The position numbers are program-made. Of a DNA stretch of 64,000 bases, positions 1-3,000 are shown one piece after another; positions within the stretch are counted from its first letter, which is position 1, and each line of letters starts with the position of its first letter. The stretch lies in sequence record OR786310.1; one strand, given 5' to 3'. The DNA comes from Escherichia phage ETEC-TG.

Positions 1-3000
1 TTAAAGGTTATATCAAATTCCCACTATCCATTATCTCAAAAATCCTTCAAATTATTTAAACTTTTTAAGAATTTACAAAAGTGAAAGTTGAAAACCAAAA
101 TTTAAAGTTTAGGAAAATTATCTTAAAATGTTAGATACAAAACAAAACTCAAAAGTCAAGGAAAATTTTAAAAATTTTGCGCGCCCACAGTATTTAAAGT
201 TTTTTTGCTTTTACAAAAATGAAAGTACAAAAGCAAAATTTAAAGTTTACAAAAATTTTTATGCAGGTGAGAATGAGAAGAGTTCTCATATGGAAATGCA
301 AATGATAATGATTCGCATTTAAGTTTATAAATGAGATTGATTCTTATTTAATAAGGTAAATGATAATCATTCTCATTTAGAGAATGACGCGCAGGGGCGG
401 TGTTTGTCTCGCGCTCCCGTGTCCCCTCGCCATGTAATAAGAATAACAGATCCAGCCAGGAAAGCAAGCGATTATTTTATCTTTACATTTCTTTACAAAT
501 ATATAGCGCCCAGCCTACCGGCGATCAACCTTCCAACCAGCGCCCTGGTTGGCGCGGTAGAAAGATGATAGCCGTTTCCTTGATATACAGCAAGCAAAAA
601 GAAAATAAAAAAGATTGAAAAAGTGGTTGACGTTCCTCACCTGGTAGCGTAGTATTCATCTTGTCGAGGGGGGCGCGGCACAACGACAATAAACAACAGG
701 AGGGGCGCAATGCAGGACGGGCAAAGGTGAGGATCTCCATAATCCACCGTCCACCAACAAAAAACATCATTCATCACCTGGAGTTAAAATCATGGCAACA
801 TTGCACATTGTGGCGAAAGCAGGACAAATCAGCGTCGTGGTAAACGGTTTTACTGAGTTCAGTCATCCCCAGGATGATCATGAAACGGTTTTATCTTTCA
901 TTGATTCCCTGTTAGAAATGGGAGTCATTACAGAAGACCAGCACGCTACAAAATGCAAGCGCGTTAATCAAATTGCAGGGATAGAATAAAAAGTATTGAC
1001 AACAAACAACAACCTGATAAGATGTATCACATAGGGCGGGAAGTGGTTTCCCGCTCGTAACAGAAGAGAGATTATCATCATGGCATCATATAGCGCAACA
1101 ATGATCGTAGCTGGCACAACTGGTAAACCTATGAGCGGTGGCGGATCTTTCGCTAATATCAATATTGACGGGCGTTTATCCCTGGACGCAGCGATTGCCA
1201 TTGCACGGGAAACATTTAAGAAAGAATGTAATTTCAACAAGCAAGATTATCTCGGTTTCGCTATTGAAAAAACCGCGCGCTTTGTTGATTATAAAAGCCC
1301 GAAAATGGTTGACACTACACTAAAAGCGCAAGATGTAGCGTTTTTGCTTTAAGGCTTGACATTAACGAATAATTTGTTAATATGTTACATAAAGCGGGAA
1401 TAGTTCCCGCTATTTGTAAGGTGGTAGAATGTTTTACATCAAATTAAAAGGTCACGTGATCGCGTTCAAAGATAACGCTTTTTACAGATTAGCAAAATAT
1501 GCGTTAATACATCCCCACTATGTTTATATAAGGGGGCGTGATGAAATAAATATCTTTGATCAAACAACATGCGAGAACATCGAGATCCGCAAGGTTGGCG
1601 TACGTGATTATCGTACATCTTTCTACCCTTGCAAGGATTCAGCAAGTCTTTTTAAGGTATGCCAATTGTTGAAAAAAGGTGGTTAATATGGGCCGCGAAT
1701 ATGTGATCCAGTCTTGGGTAAAACATGAAGCAGATGATCCGCGCATCATTCCCGATCATCTTATCGATGAATCCACGGGATATAGCGGGGAGCAAATAGG
1801 TAACAGATTAGCACGTAGTAACGGCAACGTAAAAGCGCGTTATGTGCGCCCTGGCTGGCTGGCAAATGGTAATGCTGATTTATCCAGTGCGGAAGATGCG
1901 AGCGACGGCGCGAAAGATAATCCTTTGTACAAAGTTGATCCGGCTTTTCGTGTCCTGGATGAATACCCCAGCAAGATAGCGGCGCTCGATCAAGCCCTGG
2001 AAAGTAAGCGCATCACCTGGACCGCTTACAACATGGCAAAAAACGTACTTGATGGTAAATTGATTCAAGCTGAAAGAAAATTAGCCAAAATTGCAGCCAT
2101 AGCCCAGGAGGAAGACGAGGAGACAACGGAAGAGGAAGAGTACGAAGAGATCCCGCCGTTGTTGTGTGTTGATGCTTTTCCTGATTATCAGCCGACAGAG
2201 GAAGAAAAAAGGATCGCACTAGAAAACTTTGAAAATAGTCTTTGACATATCGCCGCCACTGGCATAATATTTACCACGTAGGGCGGCAATGGTGCCGCTC
2301 ATAGTAAAATTATGCAAGAGGTTTGCAATGATTAATAAAGAAAATAGCTTGACGGTTGGAACGATTAACGCTATCATTTTCGCCGTTCCATTTTGGGTTG
2401 TAGTAGCGGCTATTATTTTCTAAAAAATATTCTTGACAACGTTTTTTAATCTGATAAGATGTATCACATAGGGCGGCGGAATACTTCCCCGCCAAAACAA
2501 AAAAGGGTAACACAATGAGCAAGCAAATCAGTACTATCATGTTTAATCTGGTATCTTTCCGCGATGATATGAAAAATTTACCACGTGAAACGGTTGATAT
2601 TCATGTTTCAGCTTATCGCGCCCTTATTGACATGTTACCGCTAAAACGTGATCAACATGCCGCTAATATGATGTTTAATGCTATGCTTAAAAAGATGATT
2701 CAAACGGATCTCACCCTGGCGTATGAGTATCAAGGGCGCTTATATGCAACTTACAACAAGGCGGTACCTGGTCTGGGAAGTACCGAAGAGTTGCACGGCT
2801 TAAACTTGGATCAAAACACTTGGGATAGTATGCGCCGCGTTATGGTATGGGCCGAAAGCGGTAAAATTTACGAATAAAAACGGTTGACACTGTTTAAACT
2901 TCTGGTATAGTTTACCACATAAGGCGGGAAGTGGTTTCCCGCCAACAATGAAAAAGGTTATCATCATGGCTATTAATATTAATGTTTCCGCTTATGCTAC

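Follow-up and report, generated by a model that had tools for sequence, protein, structure and literature searches.

In Escherichia coli, the iron regulator Fur acts on operators such as those of ryhB, gpmA, fhuA and exbB, in which a 19-bp motif with a 9-1-9 layout is accompanied by weaker sites offset by 6 bp. The same motif was found eight times in a stretch of 64,000 nucleotides from Escherichia phage ETEC-TG (sequence record OR786310.1), which is referred to as the window in the following. The E. coli operators overlap promoters and form tight, overlapping clusters, whereas the phage boxes are discrete, at least 29 bp apart, located in non-coding DNA and not associated with a conserved promoter. 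Regarding phage-borne cargo, a Fur box is located in front of the prophage gene stx1. A further one precedes the sitABCD cargo genes of lambdoid phages (PMC6969025). Both represent ordinary operators of iron-related cargo in temperate phages, and what they share with the window is a Fur box on phage DNA.

The nohA and nohB clusters, located at homologues of the terminase small subunit in the cryptic prophages Qin and DLP12, are likewise phage-borne and strong (22–25 bits; Chen et al. 2007, PMC2189734). Each of them represents a single box in the remnant of a temperate phage with cohesive ends (cos), whereas ETEC-TG carries an array in a virulent phage. The DLP12 box is located 35 bp from the cos cohesive-end sequence and hence at a genome terminus, as are, probably, the window boxes assigned to a terminal repeat. 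In the passages used here, Chen et al. (PMC2189734) describe where the sites lie with respect to the noh genes, and a connection with cos was read from the sequence in the present study. Furthermore, the same motif occurs in Repeat Region 3 of phage T5, inside the terminal repeat and at the inner edge of the pre-early block, which enters the cell first. The T5 boxes are located beside DnaA boxes and the 7.9% nick, whereas no DnaA box (TTWTNCACA) was found in window positions 1–14000, and the paired DnaA boxes with an inverted repeat D'-spacer-C' that are typical of T5 do not occur in this part of the window. Moreover, two-step injection is a T5 trait that is not known for phAPEC8-like phages.

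Co-option of sites for host regulators has been described for CtrA boxes in alphaproteobacterial phages (PMC9437464), pho boxes in cyanophages (PMC10976474) and LexA boxes in GIL01 (PMC4551915). In these cases, as is proposed here, the phage reads a global regulator of its host via conserved copies of the corresponding site. The CtrA, pho and LexA sites are located at promoters of defined phage genes, whereas the present sites, predicted for Fur, form promoter-less arrays at module borders and probable genome ends. A full-text literature search, the coverage of which left subscription journals largely outside, returned no link between Fur boxes and virulent T5-like, rV5-like or phAPEC8-like phages. 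The Fur box itself is a known kind of site; its arrangement and setting, namely promoter-less consensus arrays in virulent phages, appear to be new.

The window represents DNA of a phAPEC8-like myovirus showing 97–99% identity to anhysbys, ZCKP1 and dw-ec, which possess genomes of approximately 150 kb and belong to the genus Phapecoctavirus within the subfamily Stephanstirmvirinae. All eight sites (Table 1) match the 9-1-9 inverted repeat AATGATAATnATTATCATT (classical form: GATAATGATAATCATTATC) over 19 bp, the best of them with zero to one departures. In the initial annotation, a 14-mer ATAATCATTCTCAT at 363–376 and 12455–12468, variants of it in both regions and a palindrome ATGAGAAGAGTTCTCAT at 273–289 had been described as resembling Fur boxes. 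Both exact copies, the variants (305–318, 12634–12647 and 12640–12653) and the palindrome are present, and the 14-mer with up to two mismatches occurs ten times compared with 1.45 expected matches, a number reached in none of 100 shuffles. Three boxes had been overlooked, namely those at 330–348, 11696–11714 and 11943–11961. The four boxes at 272–377 follow each other with an exact spacing of 29 bp, and two boxes, box 4 and that at 12630–12648, score on par with the best E. coli sites. The box at 12630–12648 differs from the gpmA operator in the central base alone. Each of the three strongest boxes is preceded, at an offset of exactly 6 bp, by a shadow site (295/301, 353/359 and 12624/12630), as is typical of host Fur clusters (PMC2189734). 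The C of the ATTCTC half seems to deviate from the classical consensus, yet it is common to the top-scoring proven host sites of gpmA, ryhB, fhuA and exbB.

In order to score the sites, a symmetric log-odds matrix was derived from 14 footprinted or gel-shifted E. coli 19-mers, with site centre coordinates taken from Table 4 of Chen et al. 2007 (PMC2189734) and sequences from E. coli K-12 MG1655. The register of the 14 sites was checked by eye, as the two genome versions differ by ±1 base at some sites. The resemblance to Fur boxes held up in this comparison: leave-one-out scores of the 14 proven sites range from 17.8 to 29.1 bits and those of the eight window boxes from 16.9 to 29.6 bits, i.e., within and at the top of the range for E. 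coli sites proven by footprint or gel shift. When the matrix was applied to the 223 kb of E. coli DNA sampled, a score of at least 20 bits was reached by all 14 training sites and, apart from these, only by a further site of the footprinted fhuF promoter and by the ydhY cluster, which had been predicted by Chen et al. (PMC2189734). Dinucleotide shuffles of the whole window gave 0.097 expected hits of at least 20 bits compared with six observed, and local shuffles gave 0.0015 expected versus three observed hits for region 1–780 and 0.004 versus three for region 11450–12990. Therefore, the boxes are not an effect of AT-rich composition. The matrix reached a maximum of 8.5 bits over the whole genome of T7. 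In dw-ec, a phage that shares 99% identity with region 1 of the window, no hit of at least 16 bits apart from the same array was found in the remaining approximately 88 kb. Based on the window scan and these 88 kb, all strong boxes of the approximately 150-kb genome are therefore located in two regions, non-coding region 1 (window 1–780) and non-coding region 2 (window 11450–12990), which bracket the early gene block. Downstream of 12990, further genes on the + strand follow.

Homologous arrays adjoin the same conserved non-coding block in other phages (Table 1). An IMG/VR search for homologues via the neighbouring proteins returned three loci, and GenBank phages were used for the comparison. 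Box 4 is identical or nearly so in BIS47, phiTE, NINP13076 and rV5. When rV5-like and phi92-like phages of six genera were aligned with the last two boxes as anchor, pairwise identity amounted to 82% in the box columns and to 44% in the spacers. The diverged relative L018, the neighbouring protein of which is only 44% identical, retains the region-2 boxes while their flanks have changed. The L018 counterpart of the box at 12451 matches the ryhB operator at 19 of 19 positions despite different flanks, and the counterpart of the box at 12630 reads GATAAT-GATAAT-T-ATTCTC versus GATAAT-T-ATTCTC-ATTCTC in the window, which corresponds to a shift by one hexamer. The hexamer is the unit recognised by Fur. 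The consensus of 27 distinct phage boxes is AATGAGAATCATTCTCATT, with information falling to zero beyond the 19–21 bp of the Fur footprint; their profile correlates with the host matrix (r = 0.957), a value that is partly circular as the boxes were selected with that matrix. The alignments indicate that the boxes are under selection.

A BLAST search with region 1 also matched T5-like phages and provided a direct link to window positions 294–348. The three T5 boxes correspond to named repeats, namely copies of direct repeat C and palindromes E, G and I of Repeat Region 3; they adjoin the nick and lie inside the 10,139-bp terminal repeat, from which a copy of the array approximately 0.5–0.7 kb from the right physical end can be calculated. 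In another T5 record, the stretch is annotated as injection stop signal, and it was matched by 577 phage records. In chee24 (L019), the homologous stretch covers positions 9141–9655. Davison's analysis of the T5 region covers repeats and DnaA boxes and does not mention Fur, and the repeats were previously taken as structural (10.1101/866236).

An exact-pattern scan of IMG/VR for AATGAKAATNATTCTCATT yielded at least 120 contigs. Among the matches listed, at least 58 contigs possess two or more strong boxes within 400 bp and at least 26 possess three or more; in 22 of the latter 26, the array is located wholly within a gap of 0.3–1.9 kb free of open reading frames. Some of the array contigs have a G+C content of 50–57%, and the boxes are sharply distinct there. 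Eleven arrays among the matches listed are located within 2 kb of a terminase large-subunit gene, ten of them upstream of it, a proximity to be read with the caveat that the way in which short IMG/VR contigs are detected selects for terminase genes. The occurrence of similar box clusters in many phages suggests that phages may commonly recruit the host iron regulator. Among the individual contigs, L032, L040, L049, L053, L085, L098, L100, L107, L139 and L149 carry 3–9 consensus boxes in a gap just upstream of terminase genes, and L032 has no relative among GenBank phages. The scanned IMG/VR loci range from 21 to 57% G+C, and L052 (21% G+C) contains 9–11 boxes in 400 bp.

Regarding genome ends, direct terminal repeats of 342 bp were reported from PhageTerm for the phi92-like phage BME3 (PMC12210895). 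The annotated repeat contains two boxes (29.6 and 17.4 bits), which are the counterparts of the window boxes at 12630 and 12451. It was mapped onto the window via a conserved junction (...CGAAAATTCGCGTT/AAGCAC) near 12702, and the right-hand box pair is thus probably located inside a terminal repeat, hence at both ends of the virion DNA. In the BME3 orientation, the early block represents the first approximately 11.4 kb, with the region-1 array (five boxes, 11877–11988) at its inner edge. This layout resembles that of T5, in which the pre-early block is followed by the array at 9.47–9.63 kb, and the likeness extends to the window if its ends are as in BME3. In the E. coli K-12 prophage DLP12, the 'nohB' Fur site (L153 2092–2110) is a 24.2-bit box upstream of nohD. 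It ends 34 nt before GGGCGGCGACCT, which we take to be the lambda cohesive-end sequence; the box therefore belongs to the cos region rather than to a promoter. Phage lambda carries a similar GATGATAATCATTATCAC in the corresponding position. For the sister site at nohA, a gel shift with Fur was obtained by Chen et al. 2007 (PMC2189734).

Site quality, non-randomness, conservation and position of the boxes are direct observations, and the eight sites are probably genuine host Fur binding sites retained by selection. Occupancy by Fur and all consequences downstream of it are inferred from these observations. Fe2+-loaded Fur dimers would bind each 19-bp 9-1-9 inverted repeat. In an iron-replete cell, Fur would occupy the four boxes at 272–377 and the four at 11696–12648 and would coat the two gene-free regions bordering the approximately 11-kb early block. 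Together with Fur, the boxes would form a nucleoprotein barrier or mark that depends on iron and is placed at the genome end and where the first-expressed module begins and ends. The passage of RNA polymerase could be blocked or modulated there and the handling of DNA ends possibly affected, and the start of infection would thereby read the iron state of the host. The boxes would not be the operator of a single gene because no conserved promoter overlaps them. The initial annotation had proposed coupling of early transcription to host iron status or titration of Fur, and the location at module borders and genome ends points to a role beyond these two. Taken jointly, Fur identity and action as a barrier or mark are judged to fall just short of an even chance.

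Several points weigh against this interpretation. The matrix is based on 14 sites only, with a register chosen by the analyst, and the phage boxes favour G at position 6 (61%), where host sites favour T. Approximately 83% of host Fur clusters overlap a promoter (PMC2189734), whereas the phage boxes are accompanied by weak, non-conserved 9-of-12 matches. Moreover, it is position alone that speaks for a barrier or terminal role, the BME3 record is untidy, with Ns and an extra 788-bp duplicate, and the rV5 genome was called circularly permuted by its authors.

A wider, tentative proposal is that arrays of Fur boxes may generally mark the ends of phage genomes and the modules that enter first, a role not recognised before. 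Boxes are located in the T5 injection-stop region, in the phi92-like and phAPEC8-like terminal repeat, near lambdoid cos and upstream of metagenomic terminases. Host Fur might then assist, as an accessory factor gated by iron, in DNA entry, in packaging or in the handling of ends, an idea of the same doubtful standing that draws on an analogy: IHF serves lambda cos.

Table 1. Predicted Fur boxes and further features of the ETEC-TG window, and predicted boxes or box arrays of other phages.
Feature	Genome	Position	Strand	Sequence	Score (bits)	Remarks
Fur box 1	ETEC-TG	272..290	.	AATGAGAAGAGTTCTCATA	16.9	holds the palindrome; first unit of the 29-bp array
Fur box 2	ETEC-TG	301..319	.	AATGATAATGATTCGCATT	24.8	shadow site 295-313 (10.9 bits)
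Fur box 3	ETEC-TG	330..348	.	AATGAGATTGATTCTTATT	21.1	orthologous box retained in six genera
Fur box 4	ETEC-TG	359..377	.	AATGATAATCATTCTCATT	29.2	shadow site 353-371 (13.3 bits)
Fur box	ETEC-TG	11696..11714	.	AATGATAACCATTATCATC	21.3	identical in diverged relative L018
Weaker Fur box	ETEC-TG	11943..11961	.	AATAATAACTATTAGCAAA	17.4	bottom of the proven-site range
Fur box	ETEC-TG	12451..12469	.	AATAATAATCATTCTCATA	24.2	18/19 identity with the E. coli ryhB operator
Fur box	ETEC-TG	12630..12648	.	AATGATAATTATTCTCATT	29.6	shadow site 12624-12642 (13.0 bits)
Conserved non-coding block	ETEC-TG	378..545	.	GGTGTTTGTCTC ... CTTTACAnTTCTTTACAAA ... CTACCGGCGATCnACCTTCC		directly after box 4
Early gene block	ETEC-TG	790..11450	+			~35 small genes, own sigma-70-type promoter each; from the window's open reading frames and the promoter/terminator annotation of relative ASO2A
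Approximate equivalent of the BME3 342-bp terminal repeat	ETEC-TG	12433..12775	.			holds boxes 12451 and 12630; inferred by homology
Candidate promoter	ETEC-TG	246-274	+	TTTACA-N17-GAGAAT
Candidate promoter	ETEC-TG	331-302	-
Candidate promoter	ETEC-TG	12665-12637	-
Array	rV5				17.4, 26.3, 26.8
Array	Cronobacter phage CR9				24.4, 25.6, 22.3, 18.6
Array	Salmonella phage NINP13076				21.5, 29.6
Array	Klebsiella phage BIS47				19.0, 29.2
Array	Pectobacterium phage phiTE				19.0, 20.4, 29.2
Array	EmilieFrey (phi92-like)				26.2, 29.2, 16.4, 20.8
Fur box	T5 (AY587007)	9473-9491			22.3
Fur box	T5 (AY587007)	9577-9595			29.2	direct repeat C copy 3 / palindrome G
Fur box	T5 (AY587007)	9612-9630			23.7	direct repeat C copy 4 / palindrome I

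The main rival of a barrier is a sponge for Fur, in which the replicating arrays (hundreds of genome copies with thousands of sites) would serve as decoys drawing Fur off the host operators. It is considered unlikely, and the same applies to its supposed consequence, a derepression of iron uptake and RyhB iron sparing that would feed the phage's iron-dependent ribonucleotide reductase. Many near-consensus, non-overlapping boxes without promoter association would suit such a function, as would the fact that unrelated phages repeatedly carry arrays, the spacing of which varies and which are without exception located in non-coding DNA; moreover, the window encodes the small and large subunits of a class I ribonucleotide reductase (46464–47549 and 48261–50504). 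Multicopy Fur sites derepress fhuF in the standard titration assay. T5, however, carries the same arrays and destroys host DNA within minutes, so that host derepression cannot be their purpose there. Furthermore, six genera have retained the 29-bp spacing, and the arrays are consistently located at module borders and genome ends, neither of which a pure sink needs, and derepression of the Fur regulon would raise the levels of siderophore receptors, which T5-type phages actively counteract.

Less probable still is the presence of classical operators, in which single boxes would repress overlapping phage promoters and a transcript would appear only in iron-starved cells. A consensus scan places promoter-like sites on or beside the boxes, with 12 such sites in region 1 versus 4.0 ± 2.1 in shuffles, and most host Fur clusters overlap promoters (PMC2189734). 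However, no conserved sigma-70 promoter was found on or upstream of the boxes; the candidates (Table 1) are all weak 9-of-12 matches, and none is conserved in the other genera that keep the boxes. Neither an RNA family nor a conserved RNA structure follows downstream: Rfam gave no match for the block at 378–545 or for an approximately 80-nt GC-rich block of related phages, RNAalifold predicted only 3–4 pairs and no covarying structure after box 4 on both strands, and the GC-rich block can be folded into two hairpins in which no pair has changed on both sides. Moreover, the adjoining small genes on the - strand are unrelated between genera, that of ETEC-TG being deleted, and one or two boxes would suffice for a single promoter.

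Recognition by something other than Fur, be it a phage protein, another host protein or a DNA structure serving as packaging, injection-stop or replication signal, is improbable. The long-standing discussion of direct repeat C and palindromes E, G and I of T5 treats them as structural components of the injection stop signal and leaves Fur unmentioned, and the phage boxes favour GAGAAT over GATAAT. The initial annotation had similarly allowed for phage-specific operators that happen to resemble Fur boxes, a view now disfavoured by the occurrence of the same 19-bp motif, with no extra conserved flank, in the unrelated T5-like, rV5-like and GC-rich metagenomic phages and lambdoid prophages. These lineages differ in their gene sets, the motif is exactly as long as the Fur footprint, and among its copies are some that equal host operators base for base. 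Furthermore, the ATTCTC half is also present in the top-scoring proven host sites, and a cos-proximal prophage site of the same type, nohA, was gel-shifted by Fur (PMC2189734). Chance matches, as might be expected from regions of 30–36% G+C and an AT-rich Fur consensus, can practically be dismissed in view of the local dinucleotide shuffles and of the same arrays standing out in metagenomic contigs of 50–57% G+C.

Other candidate functions of the box regions were rejected. Window positions 403–441 share TTGTCTCGCG and CCCTCGC with the start of ryhB, but a RyhB-like small RNA was discarded, as Rfam gave nothing at E <= 5, the box spacing is different and no terminator follows. Mini-ORFs (short open reading frames) rich in isoleucine that run off the boxes (MRMIIIYLIK, MRIIIICISI, MRMIII and MRMRIIIIRIQ) are a by-product of the consensus (ATG AGA ATG ATT ATC ATT), occur on either strand and have no ribosome-binding site. 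The terminator-like hairpin at 366–388 was not regarded as a terminator: it arises from pairing of box 4 with the GAGAATGA that follows it, and a T run is absent from the + strand. Likewise, the small gene neighbouring on the - strand was rejected as the source of a binding protein, since these genes are unrelated between genera (phrog_19316 versus DUF7170/phrog_4653) and the gene is deleted in ETEC-TG.

The conserved non-coding block after box 4 can be aligned across Vequintavirinae and Stephanstirmvirinae, and its right half is missing in ETEC-TG. A deletion of approximately 383 bp at the window junction around 560–790, a segment present in all close relatives, removes this half and a small gene on the - strand (anhysbys_79, phrog_19316); both are therefore dispensable, at least in this isolate. 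The approximately 80-nt GC-rich block (CTACCGGCGATCCACCTTCCGACC...GGTACGTTAGCCCCGCCTTTACGCCGTGGGGTGGCG) is located at L022 1720–1800, L024 1690–1770 and L001 3530–3610 in relatives and is conserved above the surrounding genes across two phage subfamilies; only 516–545 of it is retained in the window. Just upstream of the region-1 array, two direct repeats of 72 nt (48–119 and 186–257; 82% identical, 138 bp apart) each contain TTTACAAAA..AAATTTAAAGTTTA, with a third, shorter copy at 139–167, and weak promoter-like matches fall within these repeats. The left part of region 2 (11480–12250) is nearly invariant, even compared with the relative having a 44% identical neighbouring protein. Its + strand shows a strong bias towards A and C (GC skew down to -0.35, AT skew up to +0.47), including stretches like CAACAACCAACAACAAACC. 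This part could represent a non-coding RNA, its AAN repeats resembling Hfq-binding motifs, an origin or a packaging signal.

Within the early block, small genes are preceded by a strong promoter TTGACA-N16-TAAGAT with TG and then by a GC hairpin before the ribosome-binding site (e.g., 996–1060 and 1356–1412), a pattern that recurs through the block. In the ASO2A annotation, these elements are represented as promoter-plus-terminator pairs. The hairpin between promoter and ribosome-binding site, an unusual arrangement, might be an attenuator or an RNA-stabilising 5' hairpin. Furthermore, - strand genes at 31207–32022, 42505–43314, 46464–50504 and 51281–52279 encode Sir2-family, PhoH-like, class I ribonucleotide reductase and ThyX-like proteins, a set that is ordinary for this phage group; the reductase is of relevance here only as an iron-requiring enzyme.

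The comparison re-labels the injection-stop repeats of T5 as putative Fur boxes. If the reading of the arrays as marks of genome ends is true, the injection stop signal of T5, the mechanism of which is still debated, would have a concrete protein candidate in Fur. In a published screen, E. coli BL21 overexpressing FeoB or YdiE was protected against T5 and against CEV2, a T5-like phage, which was attributed only to repression of the fhuA receptor (PMC7553319). An alternative reading, a hint at most, is that more Fur-Fe2+ would be bound to the phage's own boxes. If Fur binds the arrays, iron status, or Fur itself, would be a host input to the first minutes of infection. This would hold for phages that are common components of therapy cocktails, and iron is normally limiting within a host.

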